From a virus: a stretch of DNA of 19,501 bases. The DNA lies in UHGV virus genome UHGV-0193858; one strand, written 5' to 3'. Both the position numbers and the translations under genes were made by a program. Position 1 is the stretch's first letter. Each line of letters begins with the position of its first letter. Below the pieces are notes generated by a model. The model saw only the letters and a list, made by a program, of their open reading frames with translations, ran no database searches and was not told the origin of the DNA. This document shows positions 169 to 19,501 of this stretch, piece by piece.

Positions 169-969
169 CTAGGCCGTGATTTTTCCAATCCTCTCCATCA
201 GATATGCCAGGATGACATCCAGTGTGCTGGTCCCATATGCATATTTGCCGGGGAAAACCAAACATTCTGACAAAACGGATGTTAACGGAGACACTGAACC
301 ATTGCCTGCTCCGCCAATACTCATTTTTTGAGACGGGCTATACGCTGGGATTGTATAGCCCGTCACTTGTCGGCTGGTCACTGCAGACTGATCTGACCGC
401 TGGTATGCAATTGCATAGGATCCAGCAGCCTTGTTAGAGCACATAACTACAGCGCAGAATAAAGATTGCCCTATATTGTTAGGAGTAAATGCCAGATCGG
501 CCTCGATCCCTCCATTCAGAAAAATCGGGAATGAACCTGCTGACGTTGTACGAATGCCGACGCCATGAGGTGTGCTTTCCTGGGTTGCGATAACCGCTCT
601 GTCCTGTGGCGTAGCCGGAAGCGCCCCACCTGGCAGCTGATAGATGAATGCAAAAGTATTGATGTTTGCGTCCATAACCACCGCCGTATCACCAGCCATG
701 CCGGATGCACCGGAGAAATTAAGCCCCTGCAAAACAGAACCATTCAGCTTTGTGGATGGCTCGAGGGTCTCCAGTGACTTGAAAAGTCCGCCATCTAATC
801 GGTTAGAGATAGCTACTACTTTTGCACCAGACCCCATTTTTAGAAACTCTGTCTTCACTGGTGTCCATACTGATGGGGATAGTTCTGAGATCGCTTTCTC
901 TGCCGCTGTTTGTGAGTACACAGGGAGTAAGGGGTTATTCAGTCCAGTTAGTGTGTAAATCAGTCTCAT
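169..969 (-). CDS. Hypothetical protein (266 aa) co-transcribed immediately downstream of the tailspike gene; possible tail-fibre accessory or receptor-binding component
   Basis: Long ORF whose ATG lies 10 nt after the stop of the 687-aa gene, preceded by a GAGGA Shine-Dalgarno on the minus strand. No motif I recognise. Confidence 0.5.
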   Translation of the reverse strand: MRLIYTLTGLNNPLLPVYSQTAAEKAISELSPSVWTPVKTEFLKMGSGAKVVAISNRLDGGLFKSLETLEPSTKLNGSVLQGLNFSGASGMAGDTAVVMDANINTFAFIYQLPGGALPATPQDRAVIATQESTPHGVGIRTTSAGSFPIFLNGGIEADLAFTPNNIGQSLFCAVVMCSNKAAGSYAIAYQRSDQSAVTSRQVTGYTIPAYSPSQKMSIGGAGNGSVSPLTSVLSECLVFPGKYAYGTSTLDVILAYLMERIGKITA

Positions 970-978
970 TTTTTATCC

Positions 979-3042
979 TCAGAAAACGTTAATACGAAAA
1001 GCGGGGAGCCAGTCGTAAAGAGTCACGGATGTGTCATACACCCATATGATTCCAGCGGAAGATCGAACACACCCTCTTGCACCAAGAGTCCGCCCGGAAG
1101 GTTTTACAGATGCGCCGCTCTGAAGTGGGTTTTCTGCTGTCGCATAGGAAACGCGCCCAAAACGTCCAGAGGGGGCGGTCGCCAGGTTAATCAGCACGCC
1201 CTTGCCGTCCGAGCTGATCGCGATGCTCGATATAGCAGGTGGAGCACCAGTCTCATCCGTGTAGCTAAAGCCGTAATTGGCCAGACCGGAGGTGTTGATC
1301 GTAGTCGTGTCCAGCACCAGGTTCGTATACGCTGGGACATTGATTTGTATCTGCGTGGGTGAGTTCCACACGAAACTGGTCGGAACCATCCCTGACCAGC
1401 CGCTCGTAAACCACTCCTGGAGAAGCGCTCTCGCCACAGCTGCTCCGCGCCGGTTCTGGCCCGCACACGTCAAGTGCAGACCGTCTGAAATAAAATCGTA
1501 CTGGTACAAACTATTGACCAGCCTGAATTGCTCTTTTCCGTGCAATCGCGTCGACGCCAGTCGCGCGTACTGGCCTGTAAATGCACCATGCCCGTCATTG
1601 ACATACCCCAGCTGGGTAATGGCGATAATCGGCGGTTCGTTTTGACCCGTTCTTGCGATGATGTCGCTGGTGATTTGTCTCTGGTACTGCCTCATCCGTG
1701 ATTCATACATTCCTTCTCGTAATCCTGACCAGTCCTCGTCGGACTCTCCCTGCATCCAGTCAACGCAGAGAACAATCGGCAGCCAGCCGCGTGCTTTACA
1801 GGCCGTTACGCAGTCTTCGATTGAATCGAGCAGATACTGATATACCTGGTTACCCCGTTTCTGGTACTCGTAAGCCTGACCAGACTGCGCACATACGATT
1901 GATAGCGTGCGCGGCATGATTCCGGTAGCTGCAGCCATATCGCGAATGAAGGTGTTCGCGAGGCCGCTTGCGGCCGTTTCTTTATCTGTCCCACTTACTG
2001 CCTCAACCAGTGGCACCAGAGTAGTGCTGCGTGTCCCTGTACGCCTAACCCCGCCGCTGAGCATGAAAGCGTTATCAGGATATATCGGCGTTGCTGCGAC
2101 AATGGTTTGATCGGCGTCAGGACAATATCCTCGAGCGTTGGATTGCCCAGCAGTCACAAAGATAAAACATACAGGCACTGTCTCTGAGTAGGGGTACACA
2201 GTAGACCCTGACAAATGAAGTCCATACTCAGGGAGCTGGTTGGCATCATCGTCGCCACCACCACCGCCATTTCCGTTATTAACAGCTACCAGGCCACCGT
2301 CTGAGTAAATCCAGTGCTTCCCACCAACCGTATAAGCTTCAACGATCTGGTTTGTGGTTGAATCAACCGTCATCCGCCACACTTTTTCACCGCCAATAAA
2401 CTGCGGTATAGAACCCTCCCGGCCCAGCGCATAGAGTTCGGATTCTTGTTGGGTTAAAAGTTCGTAATATTTTCCGTCAGGACCGATTTGAATTAATCTG
2501 CCGCTTGTATTTAAAAATGGAGCCACGCGGGAAGTCTCCGGATCATATGCTGCCAGGGTCACGCTGTCTGGCGATACCTGGTATGCGTAGTCGTCACGAA
2601 CCATCCGCCGTCCGGTTGGCTGCAGCGTTCCAGCGAGGTTGATATACTCATCGGCCAGAGAGCTTCCGTCCTGACTGCGGACATAGGTTGTTGAACCTGC
2701 CGGAATATTCGCAATATCCGCCTGCGCCGCCGCCAGCGTCATGTACTGCCGGCTGAGAGGGATCAGGTTTTGGCGGGCTTCATCAATAACAGCGTCGGTA
2801 GCAGCTGCCATTTTTTTAGTAGCCCCAATTATCGTATCCTGGGCGTTACCAAAACGATCTATAAAAGTATCGCTTTCGCTGTTCAGGAAATCATCGTACG
2901 CCAGGGCGTTATCATTCAGATCCTTCATGCTATTTGAAGGTCTTGGATTGCCGGTATTATATCTTTTGTCCATACCTGTTCCTGTCTTCATCTTTTCAAT
3001 GAAGCAATTAAGATTGACGCCCCGCCCCTTCAGGGCTAACAT
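979..3042 (-). CDS. Tailspike/tail-fibre protein with a central SGNH/SASA-type carbohydrate esterase domain; true start probably internal (ATG at 2973 or 2991)
   Basis: 687-aa ORF. The central segment VCFIFVTAGQSNARGY carries the GQSN(M)xG nucleophile motif of the SASA/DUF303 esterases, and DGLH near the end of the domain fits the Asp-x-x-His of the triad. A glycine run (NGNGGGGGDDD) precedes it. MDKRYNT at 2973 has an AGGAACAGGT Shine-Dalgarno upstream. Confidence 0.65.
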   Translation of the reverse strand: MLALKGRGVNLNCFIEKMKTGTGMDKRYNTGNPRPSNSMKDLNDNALAYDDFLNSESDTFIDRFGNAQDTIIGATKKMAAATDAVIDEARQNLIPLSRQYMTLAAAQADIANIPAGSTTYVRSQDGSSLADEYINLAGTLQPTGRRMVRDDYAYQVSPDSVTLAAYDPETSRVAPFLNTSGRLIQIGPDGKYYELLTQQESELYALGREGSIPQFIGGEKVWRMTVDSTTNQIVEAYTVGGKHWIYSDGGLVAVNNGNGGGGGDDDANQLPEYGLHLSGSTVYPYSETVPVCFIFVTAGQSNARGYCPDADQTIVAATPIYPDNAFMLSGGVRRTGTRSTTLVPLVEAVSGTDKETAASGLANTFIRDMAAATGIMPRTLSIVCAQSGQAYEYQKRGNQVYQYLLDSIEDCVTACKARGWLPIVLCVDWMQGESDEDWSGLREGMYESRMRQYQRQITSDIIARTGQNEPPIIAITQLGYVNDGHGAFTGQYARLASTRLHGKEQFRLVNSLYQYDFISDGLHLTCAGQNRRGAAVARALLQEWFTSGWSGMVPTSFVWNSPTQIQINVPAYTNLVLDTTTINTSGLANYGFSYTDETGAPPAISSIAISSDGKGVLINLATAPSGRFGRVSYATAENPLQSGASVKPSGRTLGARGCVRSSAGIIWVYDTSVTLYDWLPAFRINVF

Positions 3043-3050
3043 CGCCTTAC

Positions 3051-3338
3051 GTGTTTAAACGGTTAAATAAGAGAATGATTTTAATAAATAAATACACCCC
3101 TCCAACGCAGGAAGATTTAGCCAGACTGAAATCCGCACTAAATTACTCCGGAAACCAAATGGCAGGGCTCGCAGGTGTAGCCAGCGATAGCCAATGGCGG
3201 AAATACACTGGCGGAGAGAGCCCCAGGGTAATGTCAAGACACATACTGTTTTATATTGCAGCTCAGCTTGTTCTGTCTGATGAGCAACTTAACAATGTAA
3301 TAAATAAAATGCGCGATATTGGCGCGGAGATAAAATAA
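3051..3338 (+). CDS. Small XRE-like helix-turn-helix protein (putative regulator); start uncertain (GTG at 3051 or ATG at 3075)
   Basis: 95-aa ORF. The segment SGNQMAGLAGVASDSQWRKYTGGE resembles a Cro/CI-type HTH. Its stop overlaps the acyltransferase start (ATAATG), suggesting translational coupling. Confidence 0.4.
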   Translation: MFKRLNKRMILINKYTPPTQEDLARLKSALNYSGNQMAGLAGVASDSQWRKYTGGESPRVMSRHILFYIAAQLVLSDEQLNNVINKMRDIGAEIK

Positions 3339-4429
3339 TGCTTGGCCTAATAAGGTTTTTTTTGGCATCGTGCGTCATTGCTTTTCACTTAACGGCTCGC
3401 ATACCTGCACTTGGCAACTTTGCAGTGAATTGCTTCTATGTTATTAGTGGTTTTTTAATAACATACATTTTGCATGAAACATACAAGTTCAACTTCTCTA
3501 TGTTTTGGAAAAATAGAATACTGAGGTTATTCCCGGCATATATATTTTTTCTCGTCATGGGCTTTCTTATTATAAAATTAATTCCATCCGCAAAGGAATT
3601 CCACTCAAACTGGACAGGCAATTTCTTACCTGGAGATTTATTAGGAAACCTCTTAATCTTCCCCTGGGCTTTCCTTTCTGATAATGCTGTAGCAAATCCA
3701 TTCGGTGCCTTTTCATCCATTTATCACTTTGCTATTGATGGTAATAGATTCAGAATAGTCACATCATCATGGTCAGTGGGTGTTGAGATAACATGTTATT
3801 TTTTATTGTGGCTTTTCATAGCCCGAAATAAATTTACAGCCATTACGTCGATTCTGCTTTCACTGCTTTATCATGCTTACGTATATGTAGTACACCATTC
3901 TTTTGATATGGCGTATTTCCCATTCCTTGCTGCAACACTTCCTTTTAGCATGGGTTCTCTGGGTTATTTTGCCCATAGAAAGTTCAAAGCTATGTATCTT
4001 TCTCCACACAAAGCTTTTTTAATAACATTTATTTGCATCGGGATTTTTATTACCAATTGGCATTTATATACAATTAATCCATTAGGTCAGTACAACATAA
4101 TACTTTACTACACCAATAATGTAATAGCATTGTTTACAACCCTGGTATTATTAAAAATAAAGACAAACATACATCTTGAGAAAATACTCAAGTGGTTTGG
4201 TGACCTGGCCTATCCAATTTTTCTTTGTCAATATTTTGGTGGATTTCTAGCATGGCTTGCTATTGGTGGTGAAAATCGTGGCTTATCCATCTTTTTATTA
4301 GGCTACCCAATATCAATTGCACTTGGGATCGTTTGTGTAATATTAATAGACAAGCCACTAATTAAAATTAGAGCAAAAATAAGGGCGGACGCTCAAAGCA
4401 AAAATAATCAGGAAAACTCTTCAAGGTAA
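3338..4429 (+). CDS. Acyltransferase family 3 integral membrane protein (polysaccharide O-acetyltransferase-like, Oac/WecH type)
   Basis: 363-aa ORF, strongly hydrophobic throughout. The N-terminus has the family pattern: His in the first helix (CVIAFH) and FYVISGFLIT (FFxxSGFLIT motif). The region is visibly AT-rich compared with its neighbours and lies on the opposite strand to the phage structural genes. Confidence 0.75.
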   Translation: MLGLIRFFLASCVIAFHLTARIPALGNFAVNCFYVISGFLITYILHETYKFNFSMFWKNRILRLFPAYIFFLVMGFLIIKLIPSAKEFHSNWTGNFLPGDLLGNLLIFPWAFLSDNAVANPFGAFSSIYHFAIDGNRFRIVTSSWSVGVEITCYFLLWLFIARNKFTAITSILLSLLYHAYVYVVHHSFDMAYFPFLAATLPFSMGSLGYFAHRKFKAMYLSPHKAFLITFICIGIFITNWHLYTINPLGQYNIILYYTNNVIALFTTLVLLKIKTNIHLEKILKWFGDLAYPIFLCQYFGGFLAWLAIGGENRGLSIFLLGYPISIALGIVCVILIDKPLIKIRAKIRADAQSKNNQENSSR

Positions 4430-5192
4430 ACTAAACCATTCGCTCCTTTTCCTGATGAATAGTTACCATTCCCCCCGGCACCACCTGAGCCGGGGAAACC
4501 GCCATCATCGCCAGAACTACCGAAGTGGCCATTGCCACCCGTTGATGAAAATGCAGATCCTCCAGCCCCGCCAATAAAAGCATCAGAACCATAATACAGA
4601 CCACCTTGAGATATTCCGCCAGTAATATTTAAAATGTTCCCGCCACTTCCGATACCTCCAGCAGGAACTGTAGCCCCGCCACCACTCCCTCCAGTAGCTG
4701 AGATTAAACTCCCGAACCTTGTATCACCACCATTCCCGCCTTTAGACGAGACACCAGCAGCAACAGCACTGCCACCAGTACCTATCGTCACAGATATAGT
4801 TTCGTTATCAGAAATATTAAATAACCCTTCCGAAAATCCACCAGCACAACCTCCAGATGCGCCCACACTAACTGGAGCATTCTGGCCACCTCCCCCGCTC
4901 CCCAAACTTTCACCCGCACTCTTTTCGTCCCTTTAGTTGGAGTGTAAGTCCCTGACTTAGTAAAGGTGACAATATTAAGCAGGCGACCGCCACCAATCGC
5001 TTTAAGAACCTGTGAATCATCATCAGGATCAAGCTCAAGCCCCGCGCCCTCAACAACGTTTACCAGCTCACGCTGAAAGGTATTCATCATCTCAGCATTA
5101 ATTATTGTCGGTGAAATACCATTAGCGACATTACCATTAGTGTATTCACCATTAGCATCAGCGGTGTCAGTTGTACTGCCAACTTTTCTCAT
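4408..5192 (-). CDS. Tail fibre protein (conserved N-terminal domain plus glycine-rich C-terminal domain), split between two frames by a 1-nt frameshift in a G-run
   Basis: ORF 4788..5192 encodes an N-terminus typical of Mu/P2-type fibres (FQRELVNVVEGAGLELDPDDDSQVLKAI ... TFTKSGTYTPTKGTKRVRVKVWGAG). ORF 4408..4905 encodes the Gly-rich continuation in another frame and has a TTG start. Both frames are open across 4788..4932. Adding one G to the GGGGG run (plus-strand C5 at 4892..4896) gives a continuous 261-codon ORF reading ...VKVWGAGGGGGQNAPVSVG... Confidence 0.6.
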
Positions 5193-5218: not shown

Positions 5219-5893
5219 TTAAACGTAACCGGAAGCGATATCAAATATTTTGGCAAACTCAGGCGTGACTTCGTAAACCCCCTCATCGTTAAAACCGAAA
5301 TAGATATAGCCGAATTTGACCAGGGTGTATGAGGGGGCGAGGGCATTAATCCGGCATTCAAGCTGACGATTACCCCAGGAACGTAATGGATCGCCACAAT
5401 AACTCAGACCCGCACGGGCATAAGTTATCGTTGTGTCTTCCGCCTCTACCAGCCAGACAAATGGCCAGTCATCCCCATTTAGCCCGTCACCACATACCGA
5501 TAAGCCAGCACGCGCCTGCCGGTATTCCTTAATCGAAATCGTATAACCCATTGCTGCGGCAATACTGATGAAATAGCTCTTTGACTGCCCGCCGGTACTG
5601 ATGAGTTTCGATACAATGTCAGACTGACGCTTCGCAATCGTATCCACTTCGCCAATCGAGCAATCATCAGGTAAGCCGAGTGTTTTTTCCCACTCGGTGA
5701 GCATAATCGTCGCAGTTTTTGGAAAGGCACCGCGCAGCAATGCAAGTGCGTCGTTATCACTTCGCTGGAAACTGGCCGCAATGGCCCGCAGTACAGCGGC
5801 CTGAACAGCTTTTGGATCCCGTGTCCACGCTCGGCCGGTGGGGATAAGCGCCTGCAGTGCCTTCTGATAATCGTCTGTTGAGAAAAGGCTCAT
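5219..5893 (-). CDS. Phage tail protein, DUF2313 family (Mu gp48 / P2 gpI / e14 YmfQ-like)
   Basis: 224 aa, position directly after the J-like gene, and the N-terminal pattern LIPTGRAW ... LTEWEKTLGLP typical of this family. Its start overlaps the J-like stop. Confidence 0.7.
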   Translation of the reverse strand: MSLFSTDDYQKALQALIPTGRAWTRDPKAVQAAVLRAIAASFQRSDNDALALLRGAFPKTATIMLTEWEKTLGLPDDCSIGEVDTIAKRQSDIVSKLISTGGQSKSYFISIAAAMGYTISIKEYRQARAGLSVCGDGLNGDDWPFVWLVEAEDTTITYARAGLSYCGDPLRSWGNRQLECRINALAPSYTLVKFGYIYFGFNDEGVYEVTPEFAKIFDIASGYV

Positions 5894-7038
5894 GTGTAGT
5901 TCACCTCACCACGAACAGCCAGCTCCCCAACTCCCGGCTCAATATTCGCAGAAGGCGACACAAGGATATAACCTGAAGTACCGGCAACATCCCCTATCGC
6001 ACGGTTGAGATCTGAAAGGTAAATTTTCCCTGTGCCGAGCGGGTTAGCGGATTCAAACAATACCCCGTCAATCGCATCAGCAATGGCCGCAGTCGTTGCG
6101 CTGTCGGCATCAGATATCCCGCCTATTTCAAAATCGATAACGCGTTCGATGGGAGAGCAGACATAGTTAAGGGAAGTAACCGGCGCAAGCGGATACATAT
6201 AATCGGCAACTCTCCCCTGATCCCCGGTGGCTTTTACAGCCCCCCACTCTTCCAGTTGAGAGACACCGTCAGTTCCTACAGGGAATCCATGATTGGTTTT
6301 ATCATCGCCGTCGCACATGATGTAAATCACCACGGTACCCGGCCCCATCCCCCGGCGCCGTATCCATGCCCTGGTAATCCCCGACACGGATAAAGCCCAG
6401 CTTTTATAATCAGTGTCACTCCCGCCCTGCGGGGGATTCTGATACGCCAGCAGACCACGTAATCGGAAATCCTCTTCACTTTCAATGTTGGCGCCGCCGG
6501 TGGCGGGCTCAATCAGCGTAACCGAGCTGTCTATGCCGGGGGCATTAGCATCCAGTGTAAGAATGGTGCCAGCATCGGCATTTCCGGAAGCGCCTCCTCC
6601 TGTCACATCGTCTGTGATATCCGGCAAAACCGCTGTTACAGCAACCGACGCACTGCCAGCAGTGTTTATCGTTATGGCATCATCGGTTGTGTACTGGTAA
6701 CCATCATCACGGTTTAACACCGCCCCTTTTGACAGTGTTTTCCCCGGCGTTCCGGTAACGGTCGCCGCCGGAGAGCGTGCTGCCGTTGCGGCTTTTCGGT
6801 AAATCTGCTTTAGCGCCATCCATCCGGCAAGCCACTCATCGGTAGAGGTGAAAGGCGTGCTCTGACGGGCAATATAATCCAGGTAGGCGTAGTGCAGATG
6901 GGCCATGCCCGCATCCATATCAGCGAGCACCTTAAGGTTGCCAAACCGTAACAGCGCGCCAACACTTTCAAGCTCTGCCTGCATAAACTGGCGATTCTCC
7001 TGCCGGAGCTCGCTCAGTGTTTTCCGCTTAAATGGCAT
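5890..7038 (-). CDS. Baseplate J-like protein (Mu gp47-like)
   Basis: 382 aa, placed between the gp46-like and DUF2313 genes, with overlapping stop/start codons on both sides as in Mu-type baseplate operons. Confidence 0.75.
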   Translation of the reverse strand: MPFKRKTLSELRQENRQFMQAELESVGALLRFGNLKVLADMDAGMAHLHYAYLDYIARQSTPFTSTDEWLAGWMALKQIYRKAATAARSPAATVTGTPGKTLSKGAVLNRDDGYQYTTDDAITINTAGSASVAVTAVLPDITDDVTGGGASGNADAGTILTLDANAPGIDSSVTLIEPATGGANIESEEDFRLRGLLAYQNPPQGGSDTDYKSWALSVSGITRAWIRRRGMGPGTVVIYIMCDGDDKTNHGFPVGTDGVSQLEEWGAVKATGDQGRVADYMYPLAPVTSLNYVCSPIERVIDFEIGGISDADSATTAAIADAIDGVLFESANPLGTGKIYLSDLNRAIGDVAGTSGYILVSPSANIEPGVGELAVRGEVNYT

Positions 7039-7477
7039 TATTCAGTTGCTCCCATAGCCAGAAGAATTTGAACTCCTGCCAGTCCCCCGCCGGCGGCAAA
7101 TACCGGATGATGAGGTTCAGCCTATTCGGGAAAACAATCTCTGACTGAGCCTCTATCGCTGCTGCAATACCATCCGACTTCATCCAGGCCAGAGCCTCTT
7201 CGGCATAATCTTCAGCTCTCATCGCCACTTCGCGCGTCAGTTTTTCACGCCGCAGTAGCCACAGCCTTGAGCCAATATTCCGGTCGTTGTCCAGATCCCC
7301 CCACCAGCCGCGGCGGTCAGTTCCTTCATAATCATCATCAGCGCGCGCCAGTCCGTCAGTAAACAAACTGATAATTATGGCCGTGTGCATATCATTCTCA
7401 GATGTCAGTACGCCGTTACCGGTTTGCCAGTCAGCATGAATGGCATCCACATCCCAGAATGAGGAAATATCACTCAT
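7028..7477 (-). CDS. Baseplate protein, GP46 family (Mu gp46 / P2 gpW-like)
   Basis: 149 aa, with N-terminal W..DL....GDL and a TAIIISLFTD segment as I remember for GP46-family proteins. Position between the V-like and J-like genes. Confidence 0.65.
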   Translation of the reverse strand: MSDISSFWDVDAIHADWQTGNGVLTSENDMHTAIIISLFTDGLARADDDYEGTDRRGWWGDLDNDRNIGSRLWLLRREKLTREVAMRAEDYAEEALAWMKSDGIAAAIEAQSEIVFPNRLNLIIRYLPPAGDWQEFKFFWLWEQLNNAI

Positions 7478-8055
7478 ACCTGACTCTCTGTTTTTTCGCT
7501 TATGATCGTGCTATCGCCGGACTGAACTTTTTTAACGTCATGGTCATGATCGTTGTGAGCATCCCGCAGCGCTTTGAGCGTTGAATTGTTCGTCTCGCAG
7601 TTATCGATGATGTCACCCGTCACCAGGAGTTTGGGGGTAACCAGCTTTACCTGTTCCGTTGCCGTCGCGGTGATGTTTCTGGCATTATTGATCTCTACAT
7701 CTTTGCCTTTCGCATCAATGAAAATTCCCTCCTCGGTCAGATGAATATTCATCCCCTGCTGGTTATAGACCACGGTTTCGCCTGGCTTAAGCCCGGTATA
7801 CCGGAAGCTTTGATGGTTAGAGGCAATGACGACAGGACTGGAGCGGTCCCCGCCGAGAAAGGCAATAAGCACATCCGATCCCGCCGGTAACCCCGATGAA
7901 AAACCAAAATCAGAGAGCCGTGGGGCGCTGGCCACTTCCAGCGGAGTCTGGTACTGGATTTCCTGCACAACCCCGCTATCTTTCTGCGTGGTAATACGGC
8001 CAATGCCCAGCATGCCGGCGATGCGCGTGGCCGATTTCTTTAAATTTTGATTCAT
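7474..8055 (-). CDS. Baseplate assembly protein V / central spike (Mu gp45-like)
   Basis: 193 aa, size and position after the hub gene, and a C-terminal histidine cluster (HNDHDHD) reminiscent of metal-binding spike tips. Confidence 0.65.
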   Translation of the reverse strand: MNQNLKKSATRIAGMLGIGRITTQKDSGVVQEIQYQTPLEVASAPRLSDFGFSSGLPAGSDVLIAFLGGDRSSPVVIASNHQSFRYTGLKPGETVVYNQQGMNIHLTEEGIFIDAKGKDVEINNARNITATATEQVKLVTPKLLVTGDIIDNCETNNSTLKALRDAHNDHDHDVKKVQSGDSTIISEKTESQV

Positions 8056-9137
8056 TGGTTTAGTCCGGGTATTTGCTGGTAGAAAGCATAAGGCTGGACA
8101 GCGAAAGCCTCCGGGGGCATCAGATAAAGGCGCGCATGGGTGCCGTCACTGTCTCTGATATAAGTCACCTCTGCGATAAGCAATTCGGTGTCAGGCAGCT
8201 GCAGACTCGGGATGTTGACCGGGATAAGCGTATTCGGCTCCCATAATTTCCCGGATTTATCGCGCCAGGAATCAATCGTCACCGTTAACTGACGGGAACG
8301 GCCGTATCGGCGGTTCATCTCCCAGTCAATCGCTCGCTGAGCCTGTTGTGAAGCCATCAGTGTACTTTCAACAATAATGATCCGTTTTCGGTAACGCATA
8401 CTGGCCGCCTCAGGATCGCGGGCCGTCGCCAGCGTCACCGAATCATAAGCCGTATCTGGCGAGAATCCTGCAATCGGCGAAATGCTCATCGATACGCCGA
8501 CGTAATCAGAAAAGCGGTCAGCCATCGAACGGCGGTAATAAGCCTGTTCGATATTTACCCCTTCTGCGATACCGCTGGCCGCGCGCTTTGTCCCCACCCG
8601 GGTCAGAAATAAGTTACCGTCAGGCTGATCGTAATAAAGCAATGCCGACCAGCGGGAGACACGATCAAGTATTTCCTGTGGCGATTCCCCCCAGTTCAGG
8701 GAAAATTGCGGAACTTTCACCAGATCATCAACGTCTGTACTTACGCCAATGTTGTAATGGGATGCGAGGCGGGAGGCTATATCAAGCGCATTACTGTTAT
8801 TGATGACGTTATTTGGCCATTCAGCAGAGCAATCAACGAGATCTGCGCACTTACTGCGGCCTGAGGCTCTGACTTCATGGCGCGAACGGGAAATAGCAGG
8901 CGACCAGTCATCAACATACCCCGTCACTACCAGGTCGTTACCAAGCTTTACCTGACAAGGCATCCCTTCCTTTACCAGCTGCTTCTGGTCACTTCCCGGA
9001 AAATAATCCATCAGTCCCAGGTCAAAATCGGAGGGAAAACGCTCAATGCCACGGGTCACCCGCACAGAGTCCCATCCTTCAATGATTTTTCCGCCCACTG
9101 TCAGGGAGACAATATCCTGATCATTATCCGTACTCAT
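8052..9137 (-). CDS. Baseplate hub / tail protein (Mu gp44, P2 gpD-like)
   Basis: 361 aa, lying immediately upstream of the V-like, gp46-like and J-like genes in Mu order. Called from position and size; I do not recall a diagnostic motif. Confidence 0.6.
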   Translation of the reverse strand: MSTDNDQDIVSLTVGGKIIEGWDSVRVTRGIERFPSDFDLGLMDYFPGSDQKQLVKEGMPCQVKLGNDLVVTGYVDDWSPAISRSRHEVRASGRSKCADLVDCSAEWPNNVINNSNALDIASRLASHYNIGVSTDVDDLVKVPQFSLNWGESPQEILDRVSRWSALLYYDQPDGNLFLTRVGTKRAASGIAEGVNIEQAYYRRSMADRFSDYVGVSMSISPIAGFSPDTAYDSVTLATARDPEAASMRYRKRIIIVESTLMASQQAQRAIDWEMNRRYGRSRQLTVTIDSWRDKSGKLWEPNTLIPVNIPSLQLPDTELLIAEVTYIRDSDGTHARLYLMPPEAFAVQPYAFYQQIPGLNQ

Positions 9138-9520
9138 TGTCTCAACACCTTCATCGTCGTCGGCATAAATGCCGGATGCGGTACGCTGGCCTCCTGTATC
9201 AGTTCATTTGCCCGCGAGGCATCCTGATACAGGCGGTTGGCCAGTACCAGGGCAGGAACCGGCACCGCAGTATTGATTTGCATCAACTCACTCAGTCCGG
9301 ATGAAGTCTGAGCCATGGTATTCAGAAAAGCGGTTCTCACGTCCATCAATGCCGTATAAAGATCATCATCGCCACGGTCGCCCGCCAGTAGTAACGCGGT
9401 ATCCAGTTGCCCGGCCACGCGTTGAGTGATTTCTTCGGCCTCATTACGACTGGTTGGGTTGTAATCTGCAGCAGCATCCGTCATGGCTCCGGTACATAGC
9501 ACTACGATCAGCGTGTTCAT
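9134..9520 (-). CDS. Probable C-terminal remnant of the tail gene upstream of the hub (Mu gp43-like?), truncated by a deletion
   Basis: 128-aa ORF translationally coupled to the hub gene (ATGA overlap). Its frame is closed by a stop about 20 codons upstream of the first ATG. Its 5' end overlaps the 3' end of the decoration-protein ORF by 77 nt. Confidence 0.35.
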   Translation of the reverse strand: MNTLIVVLCTGAMTDAAADYNPTSRNEAEEITQRVAGQLDTALLLAGDRGDDDLYTALMDVRTAFLNTMAQTSSGLSELMQINTAVPVPALVLANRLYQDASRANELIQEASVPHPAFMPTTMKVLRQ

Positions 9521-9953
9521 GGTGCCAGCCAGTTGCTGGCTGCTTTCGGAACGCTGGTAAAGGTGCCTGGGCGCTGTCTTTCAGGAAGATGGCCAGCGGA
9601 CGTAGTGCTGTTTTCAGTTCCGGCGCAGTCCAGGAATCGTCAAAAATAATATGATTCTGGTTGAACTCGCCCATCAGGTACAGGCCGCCGGACTGATCGC
9701 CATGGGTGGAAGCGTCAACATCATCAACCAGAATGGCCGCTGGCGTCTCGCTACCATCCGTTGCGGTTTTCACACTGGCTGTATATTTGCCACTGGCGGT
9801 GATCATGCCAAGCACAGTGCCACGCTTATACACACCGCCGGTGATCGTGCCGGTGTCAGTGACCAGTTGCAGCGTACCGGCAATTAACTGATCCGGCACA
9901 AACACTGAACTCTTCATGCCAGGTGCAAAGGCATTCTGACCAAATTGATCCAT
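9444..9953 (-). CDS. Head decoration protein (lambda gpD-like) with an aberrant C-terminal extension
   Basis: The first ~125 aa resemble lambda gpD in length and pattern (TDG ... GILV ... GGLY ... W, ending ...LAIFLKDS). The last ~40 aa (AQAPLPAFRKQ...CCCRLQPNQS) have no counterpart and overlap the next ORF. Confidence 0.55.
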   Translation of the reverse strand: MDQFGQNAFAPGMKSSVFVPDQLIAGTLQLVTDTGTITGGVYKRGTVLGMITASGKYTASVKTATDGSETPAAILVDDVDASTHGDQSGGLYLMGEFNQNHIIFDDSWTAPELKTALRPLAIFLKDSAQAPLPAFRKQPATGWHHEHADRSAMYRSHDGCCCRLQPNQS

Positions 9954-10543
9954 TATTTCTCTCCTTTAATGGAGTTGTAGAGGCCGGTCATCTGGTTTAC
10001 CAGTGCCGATTTACCGTTCTCTTTCTTGCCGCCATCCGGATTCAGACGGACATCATGGCTTTCCTGCATGCGCTGATCGAGAGAGCGCCCGCGCGTTGCC
10101 TTTGGTTGCAAGGCTGGCGCCGTGGATGCCAGAACATCGATAGCGGCGGTAGAGCTCATCCCGGTATTGAATGCGAGTGAAGCGGCCAGTGACGGATTCG
10201 CCGCAGCGTGCTTACTGCCGAAGATACGGGCGCAACGTTTACGCTCGGCGGCGCGGGCATTTTTCACCGCTTTGCTTTCTTTGCGGTCATCGTCGCCGTC
10301 ATCTTCGGAATCGTCATCGTCTTCAGCCGCATCCAGGTCGTCACCGTCATCTTCAGCGTCATCATCACGATCGTCGTTTTCCGCGTCATCTTCGCGTTCA
10401 TCGTCCCCGGCATCATCTTCGCGCTCATCCTCTTCCGCGCGACGGCCTTTCGCTTTTTTGGCCTTTTTGTCCTCTTCCTCTTCGGAAGCAGTCGCGCCAC
10501 GGCCAATAAGATGAGCAAAACTAAAAGTCTTTTTCTTCGCCAT
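9953..10543 (-). CDS. Head scaffolding protein (lambda Nu3-like C-terminus) with a ~70-residue acidic Asp/Glu-rich insert; start taken at MAKKK
   Basis: The C-terminal segment AAERKRCARIFGSKHAAANPSLAASLAFNTGMSSTAAIDVLASTAP aligns with the lambda C/Nu3 C-terminus as I recall it. The ATG at 10543 lies 2 nt after the protease stop. The ORF track extends the start to 10627, overlapping the protease. Confidence 0.55.
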   Translation of the reverse strand: MAKKKTFSFAHLIGRGATASEEEEDKKAKKAKGRRAEEDEREDDAGDDEREDDAENDDRDDDAEDDGDDLDAAEDDDDSEDDGDDDRKESKAVKNARAAERKRCARIFGSKHAAANPSLAASLAFNTGMSSTAAIDVLASTAPALQPKATRGRSLDQRMQESHDVRLNPDGGKKENGKSALVNQMTGLYNSIKGEK

Positions 10544-10544
10544 T

Positions 10545-11411
10545 TCAGGCTCCTGTTTTTTCAAGTAAGTTTCTGAACGCAGCATCAGGAGGACACACCT
10601 CATCAGCCAGTCCAAGTTCCACACCATCAGCAGCCATAAAACAGGCAGCCTGAGTACTTTTGATAACCTTTGCGCTAATCCCCCGATTTCTGGCGACGGT
10701 ATTCACAAACAATTCGCCCATGGTGTTGATGTCCTGCTGAATAGCCGCCAGCGCTTCATCTGACAGCTCTCTCAGCGGTGCCCCCTCAGCCTTACGGGAA
10801 CCGTAGGTGATGATGGTGACTTTGAGGCCGTCATCTTTTATCCGCTGGGTCCAGTCAAGGTGCATAGTGATCACACCAACTGAACCCACACCACCGGTTC
10901 GGGGAACAGAAATCCGGTCCGCCGCACTGGCAATCGCATAGGCGGCGGAATAGGCGCTTTCCGTCAGAATGGCATGGATGGGCTTTTTCCCGCGGGCGCC
11001 ATAAATGACATCGACCAGATCGAAACATCCGGCGACCTCGCCTCCTGGCGAATCAATATCCAGGCAGATCCCTGTAATATCGGGGTCTTCCATCGCAGTC
11101 AGGAAGGCCTGACGAATGCCGTCATAGCCTGTCATGCCACTGTATGGGCGCAGGCTACCCAGCTTCTGCACCAGGGTCCCACATATCGGGATGACAGCGA
11201 CGCCCAACACATTGTCATAACCCGGGTCGCTACGGGATTCCCGCCCCCTGTTATCGTCGTATCCATACCAGTCATCATCCATGGCAAGAGAGGATTCGAT
11301 TTTACTGATGCCAAACCGGTCCATAACGGATGCCATGATGACTTCAGCTTTACTTGGGTGCAGCGCCAGCGGTGTATTAAAAAGGCGCTGGGCCAGATGA
11401 GGTAGATTCAC
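10545..11411 (-). CDS. Prohead protease, S49 (ClpP/SppA-like) family, lambda gpC N-terminal domain-like
   Basis: 288 aa. LRPYSGMTGYDGIRQAF ... ICLDIDSPGGEVAGCFDLVDVI closely matches the lambda gpC protease domain (LQPYSGMTGYNGI ... LLDMDTPGGMVAGAFD). Confidence 0.85.
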   Translation of the reverse strand: MNLPHLAQRLFNTPLALHPSKAEVIMASVMDRFGISKIESSLAMDDDWYGYDDNRGRESRSDPGYDNVLGVAVIPICGTLVQKLGSLRPYSGMTGYDGIRQAFLTAMEDPDITGICLDIDSPGGEVAGCFDLVDVIYGARGKKPIHAILTESAYSAAYAIASAADRISVPRTGGVGSVGVITMHLDWTQRIKDDGLKVTIITYGSRKAEGAPLRELSDEALAAIQQDINTMGELFVNTVARNRGISAKVIKSTQAACFMAADGVELGLADEVCPPDAAFRNLLEKTGA

Positions 11412-13042
11412 TTTTCCTCCGGATCGGTAATTGTCTGGCTGGCGAACTGGTCCGCCTGCGCCCAGCTAGGTAATGGAAGTCCGCGCTTCAGGCAGGACTC
11501 AATTTCCCGCTGGCGCTGATCAAGTATCTCTTCCCAGTCCTCACCCACGTTTTCACCCACTTCAATTTCGAGAGTGGAAAGGCCGGCATCGAGGCCGAGA
11601 ATGGCGCCTTTTTTCTCTGCCACCGGATCAACCCATCCTCGCCCCGGCCCCATCCAGCGCGCACGGGAATACGCTGCCCGGGCATCAACAAAATCAGGGG
11701 CATCATTAGGTAGAGGTAAATCCTCGTTATCGTGAACTTCCTCCACAAAGGCCGTCAGAAGCGGCTGAGCGGTACCCATGGAGAAATCATCACGTCGGCG
11801 GGTGAGCGTTTTCCATGCCTCCAGCAAGGAAGATCGCGCAGAGCTGTAATTCACATCAGACCAGTCCTGTGTAACCTGCTGAGGAGATAACCCCGTACCG
11901 GATGAGAAATTACGCAATACTGCAGACTCGAAAACCTCAAAGTTGCTGTAAGGGCGGGCAGCGTTGACCGTTGTTATTCTCTCCCCTGGATAAAGGATCG
12001 GCATACGGGCGCCATTCTGCAGCGTCAAACGGCGATCATTATGAAACTCTGCACGACCATCCTGGTATGCTCCCAATCCCTCTTCGAAGTTTTCCCCCAG
12101 CGCGGACTGGATCATTTCGGGATCGTATGGAGACTCAATATACGCGGCGAAGATAGCATTCAGAATTGCTGCTTCCAGCTCGCTCTGGTCGTACTTCACC
12201 AGCATCTTCAGACGTTGCACTACTGGAGTCAGAATGCCATTCCCCCGATGCTGAGCTCCACGCTCATGGTCAAAGTCGTGCACAACGTGCGGGCGCCCCC
12301 ATGCGGTTTCGCGCGGGATTCGTCGCCATGTCATTGTTTTGGCGCCACTCCACCAGTCACCGATATGTGCTTCACGTATGTGATAAGCCACAGGTGCGCC
12401 GTCAGCATCAATTTCAACGCCGCCGCGGATATTCGGCATATCAAAATTCTGCTGCGGGTTACTGAGTCTGTCGGGATCAACAACCTGCACCGTCGTGGCA
12501 TAACGCCCCTTACCTGGTCCAAGGCGATCGGTGCGATACTGAAGCACCATCAGGGCATCGCCATCAATCAGCTTGTGGCGAAAGGCCAGACGCAACATTT
12601 GTGGAACGGTTAGCTTGCGCTCAACGTCACAATAACGGCCTGTGTCGTATGCCCAGGTTCTCCAGTGGGAAGCGAGTGCTTTTCCGTACTCTTCCGCCCA
12701 TACTGCGTCAAAACTTTTATTACCTGTCATCATCCGTAATACACGATAGTCAGGCTTCATGATCGGACGGAAATTGGCGCCGACCGCATTATCAAGCAGG
12801 CGAGTTATGGCACCATTGGCCCATCCATCATTTCGGACCAGATCCCGCGCACGGGAAACTATACGGTCACGGTAGATATTAATTTCGTTATCCGGTGACC
12901 ATAGTGCGGGCTGCCAGTTCGCCAGTTGATCGCTGAAGGAATCCCCGGCGTCATATGGCACCCGGCTACCGCCCGTCAACATGCTGGGTTTTGGTGCCTG
13001 ATAAGGTCTCCCGTCAGGACCAAGGATTTGCACTTTATTCAT
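11408..13042 (-). CDS. Portal protein, lambda gpB-like
   Basis: 544 aa. ARDLVRNDGWANGAI matches lambda gpB ADDLVRNNGYAANAI. Size and position between the gpW-like and protease genes. Confidence 0.85.
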   Translation of the reverse strand: MNKVQILGPDGRPYQAPKPSMLTGGSRVPYDAGDSFSDQLANWQPALWSPDNEINIYRDRIVSRARDLVRNDGWANGAITRLLDNAVGANFRPIMKPDYRVLRMMTGNKSFDAVWAEEYGKALASHWRTWAYDTGRYCDVERKLTVPQMLRLAFRHKLIDGDALMVLQYRTDRLGPGKGRYATTVQVVDPDRLSNPQQNFDMPNIRGGVEIDADGAPVAYHIREAHIGDWWSGAKTMTWRRIPRETAWGRPHVVHDFDHERGAQHRGNGILTPVVQRLKMLVKYDQSELEAAILNAIFAAYIESPYDPEMIQSALGENFEEGLGAYQDGRAEFHNDRRLTLQNGARMPILYPGERITTVNAARPYSNFEVFESAVLRNFSSGTGLSPQQVTQDWSDVNYSSARSSLLEAWKTLTRRRDDFSMGTAQPLLTAFVEEVHDNEDLPLPNDAPDFVDARAAYSRARWMGPGRGWVDPVAEKKGAILGLDAGLSTLEIEVGENVGEDWEEILDQRQREIESCLKRGLPLPSWAQADQFASQTITDPEEK

Positions 13043-13305
13043 CAGAATCTGAACCTCACTGGCTTCCGTGGCCGGGCGACAATTCCCAGTTGCGCCTGCA
13101 GCAACTGAATCAGCGCCAGCAGGTCGGCGAGAGAGCTTTGCTGATAGGAGACAGAGCGCGTCCCATCACCCTGCGTATAGGAGAATGAGACGCCACGGCT
13201 GCCGGTAGTCAGGTCGATATAAGCCTGCTGCGCTTTCTGCAGAGCGTCTCTGAGCTGCTCATCAGTCATCCCACCAGCAAGTAAGCTCGTGTTTCGGTTA
13301 AACAT
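13042..13305 (-). CDS. Head-tail joining protein, lambda gpW-like
   Basis: 87 aa, between terminase and portal. Pattern similarity to lambda gpW (DLTTGSRGVSF ... SLADLLALIQLLQAQLG versus DLMTGKRVATV ... SVSDLKKYIAELEVQTG). Confidence 0.6.
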   Translation of the reverse strand: MFNRNTSLLAGGMTDEQLRDALQKAQQAYIDLTTGSRGVSFSYTQGDGTRSVSYQQSSLADLLALIQLLQAQLGIVARPRKPVRFRF

Positions 13306-16192: not shown

Positions 16193-16717
16193 TCATTTTG
16201 CCGTTCGAATCGCTTCCTCAATCGCCCTACTCAGCGCGCCGGGCATTAAGCCGGCTGCCATTGACCGTGAGCGGTTCATGTAGTCAAGCGTAGGCGTAAC
16301 AGGTAGAGCATCACCAAACCTCACCAGCAGCTTAGGAGCACGCTGTTTCCGCTTTGGTCTGCGCGTACCATTCGCTGAGCGCCGGGCTCGTTTCTTTTTC
16401 GCCTTCTTCGGTTTACGCCTCTGCCAGACAGCATCAACACCATTGACCTCACCTACGAACACATTCGGCTTCGCTTTCAACTGCGACAGCTTATTTCGCG
16501 GCATGTTGCCGTATTTGTTCAGTTTGATGTTCTTTGGATTGAGCAGCGCCTGGCTGTTCAGTTTATGTTCACCACCAAATTCAAAGGGTTCGAGATATTC
16601 AGCGGCGACATCGCGCACAAAGACTTTTGCGCGGAGGTTGTTCTTTCTGGCGCCAGCAGAGCCCACTGAGTTGACGGTGAACGGCGTCGGCGATTCCAGT
16701 TTTCGCCCCAGTGCCAC
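16193..16717 (-). CDS. Hypothetical basic protein (174 aa) with a Lys/Arg-rich tract, lying between the integrase remnant and the cos/terminase region
   Basis: Long open frame on the minus strand with no comparable plus-strand ORF. Contains RRKPKKAKKKRARRSANGTRRPKRKQRAPK. No family recognised. Confidence 0.4.
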   Translation of the reverse strand: MALGRKLESPTPFTVNSVGSAGARKNNLRAKVFVRDVAAEYLEPFEFGGEHKLNSQALLNPKNIKLNKYGNMPRNKLSQLKAKPNVFVGEVNGVDAVWQRRKPKKAKKKRARRSANGTRRPKRKQRAPKLLVRFGDALPVTPTLDYMNRSRSMAAGLMPGALSRAIEEAIRTAK

Positions 16718-17313
16718 CTTTTGCGCTGCGGCGATATCAGCGTGGTTATGTACCAGGTAATCCGTGTGTTGGTGTCGATAAGTTTCCTAAACCCCAGCGC
16801 GACCGCTACATAACTGATGAAGAGTACATAGCTATCTTCACTCATGCGACACCTGCAGTTAAAGCCGCGATGGAAATTGCGTATCTTTGCGCTGCAAGGG
16901 TATCTGATGTTCTTAAAATGAACTGGAATCAGATTCTTGATAAAGGAATTTTCATACAGCAAGGTAAAACTGGTATTAAACAGATCAAAGCCTGGACTGA
17001 GCGTCTTAGTGCGGCTGTGGATATTTGCAGGGAATGGGGACAGGATGGCCCTGTTATCAGGACAATGTATGGTGAGCGTTATTCATACAAGGGATTTAAT
17101 GAAGCATGGAGAAAAGCGAGAAACGCGGCTTCTGAAGAACTTGGTAGGCCACTTGATTGCACCTTCCATGATCTAAAGGCTAAAGGGATCTCAGACTATG
17201 AAGGATCTGGCAGGGATAAGCAAAAATTCAGTGGTCATAAGACAGAATCACAGGTACTTGTTTACGACAGGAAAGTTAAAATCAGCCCAACGTTGAACAA
17301 GAAAATGAGATGA
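16711..17313 (+). pseudogene. Tyrosine integrase, C-terminal catalytic domain only (about 170 N-terminal residues missing); convergent with the tRNA
   Basis: The 200-aa ORF aligns with the lambda Int catalytic half: RDRYITDEEYIAIF versus RSRLTADEYLKIY, FIQQGKTGIKQIKA versus YVEQSKTGVKIAIP, and TFHDLKAKG ... SGHKTESQVLVYDR versus TFHELRSLS ... LGHKSDTMASQYRD. No arm-binding or core-binding N-terminal domain is encoded upstream in any frame. Confidence 0.65.
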
Positions 17314-17355: not shown

Positions 17356-17425
17356 AGTGGATTTTCTCAATTTTTCTCATCGGGATGCAGGTCACTGAAA
17401 GGGAATGCTGTAAGTGTTTGAATAG

Positions 17426-17515
17426 TGGCGGAGAGAGGGGGATTTGAACCCCCGGTAGAGTTGCCCCTACTCCGGTTTTCGAGACCGGTCCGTTCAGCCG
17501 CTCCGGCATCTCTCC
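17426..17515 (-). tRNA. serU: tRNA-Ser (anticodon CGA), class II with long variable arm
   Basis: Minus-strand sequence GGAGAGATGCCGGAGCGGCTGAACGGACCGGTCTCGAAAACCGGAGTAGGGGCAACTCTACCGGGGGTTCAAATCCCCCTCTCTCCGCCA. It has a 7-bp acceptor stem (GGAGAGA/TCTCTCC), anticodon stem CCGGT/ACCGG with loop CTCGAAA, T-arm GGGGG-TTCAAAT-CCCCC and a 3' CCA. The serU symbol is from memory of the enterobacterial tRNA-Ser(CGA). Confidence 0.9.
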
Positions 17516-17757
17516 GTTCAGATGGTTGCCATGATGCCAGGAAATTTACACACAACCTTTTCAATAAGTTAGCCATCTTCAAAACTTCATTTTCTCATGA
17601 AATTTTGACATTAGCCCTTAATGATTGGCTGGGAATGCTTTCGCCTCTGAAAGGAGTTGCGAGTGCCTTTCCAGTATCGAATGGCGCTACTTTACCAGCA
17701 TGTTTTTATAGGCTCTTCATCCAGGGGTAAGGATGAAATTTAGGTGCGCACCACTTT

Positions 17758-18150
17758 TCATATTACTGGATAATCATCATCATCCTTCCCTATCCGATTG
17801 ATAACGAATGTCACTACCCCGACAACTGTAACATCATCCAGGGCCTCACCTTCCAACGCTTCACCGTCTCGTGTAATAAATGCCCGGCCCATAATTTTTG
17901 CAAAATCAGTGCCGCCGCCGTATTGAATTAAAACGGTATCTCCTTGCTTTGGTTTTACGAAGCAATCCACTACGGCATAGCCGGTTTCTGTTTGTACTAT
18001 CCGAGTATTGGGGCCGGTACCGCAGAGTGAATCAACGGTCAGACGCCGTTCAACATAGTCAGCAGCTGGCGACGGAAATCCCACGTTATAGCCCTCCGTT
18101 TGGGTTGTATAACTGGAACGTGAGCTCATCGCCTTCCTGCGTTGAGACAT
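17758..18150 (-). CDS. UmuD-like (peptidase S24 fold) protein that appears to lack the serine-nucleophile loop
   Basis: 130 aa. NVGFPSPAADYVERR matches the UmuD cleavage-site region (QCGFPSPAADYVEQR). The C-terminal part aligns with UmuD (GDTVLIQ versus GDIVIAA, FAKIM versus TVKKL, GVVTFVI versus GVVIHVV). No GDSM/GxSM motif is present; the alignment suggests about 12 residues spanning it are absent. Confidence 0.6.
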   Translation of the reverse strand: MSQRRKAMSSRSSYTTQTEGYNVGFPSPAADYVERRLTVDSLCGTGPNTRIVQTETGYAVVDCFVKPKQGDTVLIQYGGGTDFAKIMGRAFITRDGEALEGEALDDVTVVGVVTFVINRIGKDDDDYPVI

Positions 18151-18159
18151 CCCGGAATG

Positions 18160-18318
18160 TCAGTGCTCTATCCACTGGTTAGCCTGGCGCGGTGACCATA
18201 TCCAGTTAACTTTTGCGAGTTCCCGGATAAAACCGGACGTTGTCACGGTGCGACGGCCATTAGGCTCAATGACAATTGCCTGACGCCAGGCTATTTCGAT
18301 ATCTGAGTTTCGCGGCAT
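18160..18318 (-). CDS. Small protein (52 aa), first gene of the LexA-box operon; function unknown
   Basis: ATG at 18318 is preceded by a GGAGGTG Shine-Dalgarno. The 67-aa ORF-track version starts at 18363 and would include the LexA box, so the internal ATG is the more plausible start. The stop lies 9 nt before the UmuD-like start. Confidence 0.45.
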   Translation of the reverse strand: MPRNSDIEIAWRQAIVIEPNGRRTVTTSGFIRELAKVNWIWSPRQANQWIEH

Positions 18319-18336
18319 AACTTCACCTCCCGAAAA

Positions 18337-18356
18337 TACTGTTTTTATATACAGTA
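18337..18356. promoter_or_regulatory. LexA (SOS) box, perfect CTGT-N8-ACAG palindrome
   Basis: Plus strand TACTGTTTTTATATACAGTA; reverse complement TACTGTATATAAAAACAGTA. It lies 18 nt upstream of the small-protein start codon, where it would overlap the promoter -10/start site. Confidence 0.8.
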
Positions 18357-18528
18357 GATTCATTAAGAGATCTGATCAATACAGGTTCCAGCTATCAATC
18401 AGGAACACTGAGGAGGAAACCAGTCACCTTTTAGCCTCTGATATTGGTTTCACTTATTGATTATGTTGTCTATGTGCCAACTATGAACTATCTTTTCTCA
18501 AAACCTGCTACTGCAAAATGGATATAAG

Positions 18529-18654
18529 ATGTCACAGACGGACTTGCTGATTGTTGTTTTTACTCTGGGCATTTTAGCCTTTGGCTATTCCATATGGTTC
18601 ATTTCGAACAGAATACTTTGCTCTATATTTCATAGACTTACAAAGAATATATGA
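18529..18654 (+). CDS. Possible small hydrophobic peptide (41 aa, one predicted TM helix), divergent from the LexA-box operon
   Basis: ATG at 18529 reads MSQTDLLIVVFTLGILAFGYSIWFISNRILCSIFHRLTKNI. The ribosome-binding site is weak; too short to appear in the ORF track. Speculative. Confidence 0.2.
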   Translation: MSQTDLLIVVFTLGILAFGYSIWFISNRILCSIFHRLTKNI

Positions 18655-18793
18655 ATTGGGATGGTATAGACCCAAATTCATGGTCATTGCCCCTCGACGT
18701 CGGAAGGTACTTACAGATCATCTTCGCTCTTAACCTATCACATCGGCACCTACTCCATGATGTAACAGCTCAGACCAGAAATATCTGGAAGCT

Positions 18794-19411: not shown

Positions 19412-19501
19412 TCAAAGCTGAATGAATTGATTAAGCCAAACGTAACATATCAGGAAAAGTAGTGAAATCTTTGCCTTCAAGTCGCCGGGAGGTACTTGTA
19501 G

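Follow-up and report, generated by a model that had tools for sequence, protein, structure and literature searches.

The virus genome UHGV-0193858, a stretch of 19,501 nucleotides that we analysed as a whole (hereafter the window), is a defective Mu-type-baseplate prophage of the commensal Escherichia coli HS (serogroup O9), to whose chromosome it is 99.97% identical, and the gene at positions 979-2973 on its minus strand encodes a modular phage tail fibre with a distal SASA-type esterase. A gene for a putative membrane O-acyltransferase lies nearby on the plus strand, and an initial annotation had proposed that the two enzymes form a write/erase pair acting on a surface polysaccharide. We found that the fibre esterase and the acyltransferase assort independently, which does not support a matched pair, and we consider it highly probable that the locus holds the esterase-tipped modular fibre of a temperate myophage together with a separate acetylase moron. 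Both genes belong to known kinds and are already named in RefSeq, the fibre gene of E. coli HS as "sialate O-acetylesterase" and its neighbour as "acyltransferase family protein". The fibre gene and its parts, all on the minus strand of the window, are as follows.

979-2973, minus strand: tail fibre or receptor-binding protein (RBP) with a SASA-type esterase tip, 664 amino acids from Met24 (RefSeq WP_001565623.1, 'sialate O-acetylesterase')
2602-2973, minus strand: N-terminal anchor, about amino acids 1-124 of the 664-amino-acid form, common to fibres with unrelated tips
2245-2274, minus strand: Gly/Asp-rich linker GNGGGGGDDD, residues 257-266
1417-2163, minus strand: SASA (PF03629) SGNH esterase domain, with the Ser301 codon at 2140-2142, QGESD at 1738-1752, Asp520 at 1483-1485 and His523 at 1474-1476
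982-1416, minus strand: C-terminal beta-rich domain with conserved G591, G650, G654, R656 and W678, which always accompanies this esterase domain

The open reading frame (ORF) at 979-3042 on the minus strand is real and comprises 687 amino acids when read from its first ATG at 3042, but RefSeq and most of more than 1900 homologues start at Met24 (MDKRYNTGNPRP...), and by this comparison Met24 is probably the start of the fibre; residue numbers given here follow the 687-amino-acid frame unless the 664-amino-acid form is named. The hallmarks for which the frame had initially been singled out (AGQSNARGY, DGLH and the Gly-rich linker) are all present, and across 111 distant relatives no positions are better conserved than these motif residues. 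The fibre-like character ascribed to the protein was borne out as well: phrog_4201 'tail fiber protein' matches it with an E-value of 1.3e-66, several PHROG fibre families match its N-terminus only, and the gene lies directly downstream of the Mu gp44-gp48 baseplate module. A scan of the sequence found no signal peptide and no hydrophobic segment.

On the basis of sequence comparisons and a structural model, the distal domain is predicted to be a SASA-type SGNH carbohydrate O-acetylesterase. First, the Pfam family SASA (PF03629), which is carried by all fibre homologues examined, matches residues 294-542 over profile positions 4-226 of 226 (E 1.8e-11; 44.6 bits versus a curated cut-off of 24.8), a significant match as anticipated from the motifs. 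Second, the blocks expected of such an enzyme are found at residues 299-302 (GQSN, with Ser301), 431-435 (QGESD, part of WMQGESD at 429-435 and the third SGNH-type block) and 520-523 (DGLH). An exhaustive search over 1.8 billion representatives yielded 1287 relatives, and in the 111 relatives of the conservation set, which share 28-54% identity, Q300, S301 and H523 are conserved to 100%, G299 to 99%, G397 to 97%, E433 to 94% and D520 to 70%. The same residues are invariant in a second alignment (A1), and a further homologue search seeded with the diverse alignment mostly returned the same close relatives. A search of NCBIfam with the fibre, with the acyltransferase and with the partner proteins described below gave no match.

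Third, an AlphaFold2 model of residues 268-687, computed as a monomer and built on 38 diverse sequences, is confident (predicted local distance difference test, pLDDT, 92.7; predicted template modelling score, pTM, 0.91) and displays the SGNH alpha/beta/alpha fold; Ser, His and Asp of the putative catalytic triad looked for at the outset are all present. The linker precedes the part that was modelled, and residues 268-278 just past it have a pLDDT <50. In a Foldseek search with this model the top solved structure was the tailspike of the cyanopodophage Pan3 (9vyh, released 2025-11-26; E 6e-25, template modelling (TM) score 0.78), aligned over the esterase and the C-terminal beta domain, followed by the SASA-type acetylesterases XAC1771 (7kmm), At4g34215 (2apj), 1zmb, NanS (3pt5) and a CE20 enzyme (9ega), all with a probability of 1.00. 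The Pan3 protein is a virion tailspike with the same two-domain tip, its C-terminus aligning to the C-terminal beta domain of the fibre; it differs in sharing just 18% identity, in belonging to a podophage of a cyanobacterium and in having a different N-terminal part. Matches among viral models in BFVD include the spike of phage ViI, an esterase of the Vi capsule, and that of PP99, which also deacetylates. A single-sequence phmmer search of the fibre against PDB sequences returned chance matches to aminoglycoside acetyltransferases alone (E ~0.1), and a profile search was therefore needed; in hmmsearch the profile recovered 9vyh (E 1.4e-25) as well as 2apj, the GQSN and DxxH blocks (DNLH in 2apj) being in register.

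The RefSeq name would suit a true sialate O-acetylesterase of the NanS-p kind that acts on the sialic acids of host mucin, either for bacterial growth or for adherence of the phage to mucus. E. coli NanS (YjhS, 3pt5) and NanS-p do belong to the SASA family as the fibre does, with the same GQSN block around the nucleophile and a His block towards the C-terminus, and the fold search finds 3pt5 with an E-value of 8e-8; however, the similarity is distant (14% identity, TM score 0.42-0.54) and a phage tailspike is the top match. NanS and NanS-p are nutritional enzymes, soluble or periplasmic, or are carried as cargo by Stx prophages, and are not anchored to fibres, whereas the protein described here has a fibre anchor, occupies the fibre slot after the baseplate, lacks a signal peptide or hydrophobic segment and has its distal module repeated behind the tailspike N-domain of a lytic phage, a fibre context that argues for a bacterial polysaccharide as the substrate. 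The RefSeq name seems to have been derived from the SASA domain (no NCBIfam model matched) and not from experiment, and its "sialate" probably overstates what is known of specificity. We therefore regard a nutritional or mucus-directed enzyme as very improbable, the least likely of the explanations weighed here.

We favour instead the reading of the protein as a modular, esterase-tipped fibre, according to which an N-terminal anchor of ~120 residues would fix a presumably trimeric fibre to the virion of a temperate myophage with a Mu-type baseplate, followed in order by a shaft segment, the Gly-rich hinge, the SASA-type SGNH esterase and the C-terminal beta domain. If it works like the characterised esterase spikes (G7C gp63.1 and those of the Vi phages and PP99) and the assayed Klebsiella prophage fibres, the esterase would bind an O-acetylated surface polysaccharide (capsule or O antigen) and remove acetyl groups. 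Ser301 would be the nucleophile, His523 the base and Asp520 the relay, and the oxyanion hole would be made up of the GQSN and QGESD blocks; deacetylation would then be a step in adsorption and penetration. The RBPs of G7C (gp63.1), the Vi phages and PP99 likewise deacetylate O antigen or capsule instead of cutting it, and acetylation of the receptor is required for infection in the case of G7C gp63.1 (PMC10743462). These spikes differ from the fibre in belonging to more distant SGNH families (TM score 0.31-0.45) and to lytic phages, and in having substrates defined by experiment.

Closer in lifestyle are the fibres of a 2026 PLoS Biology study of Klebsiella prophages, in which SGNH ranks among the commonest enzymatic RBP domains, the fibres 164_08-KL2 and 174_38-KL55 hydrolyse p-nitrophenyl acetate, 164_08 is annotated as SASA (PF03629), and capsule deacetylation is proposed as an infection step (PMC13123978). 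Like the fibre of the window, these are temperate-phage tail fibres with a C-terminal esterase of the SGNH superfamily. Unlike it, they come from Klebsiella hosts and are described with no specific adjacency to an acyltransferase, and the published fragment of the 164_08 sequence does not resemble the fibre of the window in its details, so that 164_08 represents another SASA subfamily, nearer mammalian SIAE (8F9O). Fibres with esterase tips are coming to be seen as one of the main means that temperate phages of Enterobacteria have for recognising capsules and O antigens.

The distal part of the fibre is exchangeable. In E. coli genomes the anchor (the first 90-124 or so residues) is conserved and then gives way to unrelated tips, the recombination breakpoints lying near amino acids 90-124 and matches in other genomes beginning at window positions 2602-2705. 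At least eight tips occur on the same anchor: the SASA tip, two of GDSL type, a right-handed beta-helix, a TolB-like and a CotH-like tip, and two without a detectable domain. Each tip type has its own unrelated downstream partner of 250-460 amino acids, and a comparison of the partners of different tips detected no mutual similarity. One partner of an alternative tip has a weak match to ConA-like lectins. The partner of the SASA tip is the following gene.

169-969, minus strand: 266-amino-acid partner protein, immediately downstream of the SASA fibre in every phage backbone examined

The 266-amino-acid protein has no match in Pfam, PHROG or NCBIfam, and its single-sequence model is unusable (pLDDT 31). 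The SASA part of the fibre (from ~residue 125) and the partner gene move as a unit, which is found in lambda-type prophages of Klebsiella, in siphophage-type tails of other kinds from Klebsiella as well as E. coli, in a different myophage lineage of E. coli and, in the lytic Vequintavirinae phage AV124, behind the CBA120/G7C-type Tail_spike_N domain (PF18668). The closest Klebsiella copy shares 99% identity over the distal 420 residues, and the Klebsiella prophages are apparently complete. The esterase part and its downstream gene constitute a mobile cassette that is swapped among phages of E. coli and Klebsiella.

The second enzyme of the locus belongs to a group of genes at the far side of the fibre gene.

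3078-3338, plus strand: 87-amino-acid ORF (phrog_20491) that abuts the acyltransferase start and is conserved with the acyltransferase in other phages
3338-4429, plus strand: AT3-only (acyltransferase-3) membrane O-acyltransferase, 363 amino acids (PF01757; phrog_3333; R6-X10-H17, FYVISG 33-38, R60-x-x-R63)
4408-5192, minus strand: Gly_rich_2 tail fibre, convergent with the acyltransferase gene with a 22-nucleotide overlap; 261 amino acids and intact in E. coli HS

By its sequence, the product of 3338-4429 is a credible O-acetyltransferase: it matches PF01757 above the cut-off (E 2e-15) and phrog_3333 'O-acetyltransferase' (E 5.8e-22), and carries the motifs R6-X10-H17, FYVISG (33-38) and RILR (60-63). 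In characterised O-antigen acetylases an R/K-X10-H motif in transmembrane helix 1, an FFXISG-like motif in transmembrane helix 2 and an RXXR motif are essential (PMC7448272). Hydropathy analysis revealed several strong hydrophobic segments, in a scan too crude to count helices. The acyltransferase gene had been placed on the strand opposite to the fibre gene and beside it; the strand and the acyltransferase-3 assignment hold (PF01757, phrog_3333), whereas the two genes are separated by the conserved 87-amino-acid ORF, which is co-oriented with the acyltransferase gene. One RefSeq record gives this small ORF the name 'transcriptional regulator'. The acyltransferase gene lies in a low-GC region (36-39% versus ~52-55% in the structural genes), and a promoter and terminator scan around it found no more sites than in shuffled sequence. 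We also asked whether the SGNH domain of the fibre could supply the AT3 protein with a periplasmic transferase, on the pattern of OafA/OatA, and rejected this idea on the grounds that the fibre is a virion protein without a signal peptide or membrane segment.

In the Gly_rich_2 gene, a run of five C residues at 4892 splits the window copy into two overlapping ORFs, the run being six C residues long in HS and all other matches; the difference is due to a sequencing error in the homopolymer or else to slipped-strand variation in the Gly codons.

With both enzymes thus credible on sequence grounds, the part of the initial proposal that named a receptor-deacetylating fibre and an acetylating conversion gene stands; it was their coupling as a matched pair that found no support, the two genes assorting independently. 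In its full form the proposal would have the acyltransferase acetylate a surface glycan and the fibre strip the same acetyl group, providing a private key versus competitors or destroying the receptor for the release of progeny. The genes are adjacent and both look catalytically competent by sequence, and an interplay of acetylation and deacetylation has been put forward in general terms for temperate phages by the Klebsiella study, in which acetyltransferases occur in 5-30% of prophages (PMC13123978). The annotation of the K loci of HS and of PCN061, another E. coli strain that carries the two genes, lists no acetyltransferase, which speaks for such a pair. Moreover, among 32 complete E. coli genomes with the same acyltransferase allele (>=97% identity), 24 have an esterase-type tip from one of two different esterase families beside it (16 SASA, 8 GDSL).

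Three comparisons of gene neighbourhoods argue against an obligate pair of this kind, which they do not support. First, in the remaining genomes of this sample the same allele adjoins a beta-helix, a TolB-like, a CotH-like or one of the two no-domain tips, so that esterases make up ~3 of the 8 independent tip types found beside it. Second, none of the six neighbourhoods of more distant acyltransferase relatives (48-64% identity) contained an esterase fibre next to the acyltransferase gene; five of the six relatives lie at the distal end of a fibre module (Gly_rich_2; lambda-type S74; Gp53-like with Caudo_TAP; or a no-Pfam fibre with an arabinofuranosidase-like partner), and the sixth (P0140) was seen only beside an integrase near a contig end. 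Third, no acyltransferase was found near the SASA fibre and its 266-amino-acid partner in at least five other backbones examined, and it is in such backbones without the acyltransferase that the SASA fibre is most abundant. The 24 genomes reduce to ~3 independent tip acquisitions, which lowers the weight of their number, and SGNH tips are in any case among the commonest enzymatic RBP domains of prophages. For a shared substrate nothing speaks beyond adjacency in a single lineage, and finding a "writer" beside an "eraser" in a mosaic fibre region does not amount to evidence of cooperation. We consider a write/erase pair unlikely.

What the acyltransferase co-varies with is the tip of the other fibre. 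A comparison of window positions 3078-5192 with positions 5738-8039 of another phage locus (L005), whose baseplate and fibre N-terminus are unrelated to those of the window, revealed 73% identity for the 87-amino-acid ORF, 64% for the acyltransferase and 75% for the distal domain of the Gly_rich_2 fibre, and the acyltransferase and fibre genes overlap by 22 nucleotides at their 3' ends in both. A Klebsiella relative shares the baseplate and has a diverged Gly_rich_2 tip, and its acyltransferase has diverged likewise, to 49% identity. Judged by these comparisons, the acyltransferase travels as a cassette with the 87-amino-acid ORF and the Gly_rich_2 fibre tip. On the basis of this co-variation and of the independent assortment from the SASA fibre, the acyltransferase is best read as a conventional lysogenic-conversion moron, and the best-supported description is that of a moron sitting where the fibre module ends, followed by a second fibre that can be swapped. 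It resembles the Sf6 Oac-type AT3-only acetylases, prophage morons of lysogenic conversion that lie beside receptor-binding genes and share the R/K-X10-H, FFXISG-like and RXXR motifs (PMC7448272), a likeness drawn from motifs and not from direct comparison; it differs in its length of 363 amino acids, in being preceded by the 87-amino-acid ORF and in overlapping the 3' end of a Gly_rich_2 gene. Prophage acetylases change serotype and phage sensitivity, and the likeliest role of this one, presumably expressed from the prophage together with the 87-amino-acid ORF, would be the acetylation of a glycan of the host, for which the O9 polymannan or some other glycan present in O9 strains is plausible, with an effect on phage susceptibility or serology.

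The acyltransferase shows a host association. Genes of the O9 family (wzt/wbdD) are present in at least 28 of the 32 genomes with the allele, among the matches listed, versus 264 of 5426 complete genomes (4.9%), a comparison that does not control for host kinship. The acyltransferase-bearing prophages are integrated at several sites and hence are not one clone, and the prophage family is almost confined to O9-family hosts. E. coli HS and PCN061 have O9 in common and differ in their group 1 capsule loci. The polymannans of E. coli O9 and Klebsiella O3 are identical in structure, which fits the sharing of the module between the two genera. Two E. coli genomes with the SASA fibre and without the acyltransferase were O9 too. 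In E. coli HS (locus L022, 2125000-2174000) a group 1 capsule locus resembling those of Klebsiella (wzc, wbaP, wzy, flippase and rml genes) adjoins the O9 polymannan cluster, with IS1 between them.

A more novel account is that of an arms race, in which the acyltransferase would acetylate the shared polymannan O antigen or another common glycan in prophages of O9 E. coli and O3 Klebsiella, and the SASA and GDSL tips repeatedly recruited beside it would be counter-measures by which related phages could infect lysogens masked in this way. In the literature checked we found no report of an O-acetylated O9 or O3 polymannan, and we think this account doubtful, at about the level of the write/erase pair. 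If it were true, the locus would record a contest of acetylation and deacetylation within one phage family, on an acetylation of O9/O3 that is undescribed. The one tie of the locus to an unsolved question is the substrate of the enzymes, together with the strong restriction to O9 hosts of the prophage family that bears the acyltransferase. The locus is a clean example with many members, and since its copies in E. coli O9 and in K. pneumoniae hardly differ, it could serve to find an acetylated receptor that the two have in common.

The prophage that carries these genes has decayed, and the morphogenesis genes that remain upstream of the fibres include the following module.

5219-9137, minus strand: Mu-type baseplate module (gp44 hub, gp45, gp46, gp47/J and gp48, from Pfam and PHROG matches), to which the fibres belong

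A 128-amino-acid ORF at 9134-9520 corresponds, with 100% identity, to the last 128 residues of a Mu-type DNA circularisation protein, and directly follows a lambda-D-like head decoration gene (window 9134-9953). Since the decoration gene abuts this remnant, a single deletion took the genes for the major capsid, connector, sheath, tube and tape-measure proteins. The prophage integrase is truncated as well. At 16193-17313 a minor tail protein remnant (phrog_1924) abuts the truncated tyrosine integrase on the opposite strand, just before tRNA-Ser, and the two together are further evidence of internal deletions in the prophage. Ten other E. coli genomes harbour at the same tRNA-Ser site a different decay product without any morphogenesis genes, which retains intact the segment with the 266-amino-acid gene, the fibre, the 87-amino-acid ORF and the acyltransferase. 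In E. coli PCN061 (locus L024) positions 9000-13260 are 100% identical to window positions 169-4429, from the 266-amino-acid gene to the acyltransferase; this decay product arose independently of that in HS and adjoins lambdoid early genes (RusA remnant, Dam and RacR).

Three observations count against the combination that we favour, an esterase-tipped fibre and a separate moron. First, the tail genes are gone from the prophage in E. coli HS and in PCN061-type strains; the defective prophage leaves the fibre in HS without a tail of its own to sit on, and no virion that the HS or PCN061-type element could make by itself would at present have a place for the fibre to function. Second, the conservation of Asp520 at just 70% suggests that some family members may work with a Ser-His dyad. 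Third, the esterase-type tips in 24 of the 32 genomes with the allele leave room for a functional link between the two enzymes. The first two of these would also suit the explanation that the esterase fold is kept as a lectin-like module without catalysis or is an inert relic of a dead prophage. Against it, Ser301, His523, Gly299 and Gln300 are conserved to 99-100% in the 111 distant relatives, the ORF is intact with its distal part 99% identical to copies in apparently complete Klebsiella prophages, and related SASA and SGNH fibres are active. We judge a binding-only or decayed tip to be very improbable, and the predicted esterase the better description of the fibre.

Finally, the window is a circular permutation of a ~19.5-kb prophage remnant. 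Its final 2.1 kb (17411-19501) match, at 97.9%, the HS DNA immediately to the left of window position 1 and are joined via a 137-bp att repeat (17411-17547) at tRNA-Ser(cga) (17426-17515, minus strand). The permutation could stem from a real excised circle, from a tandem junction or from an assembly loop through the repeat.

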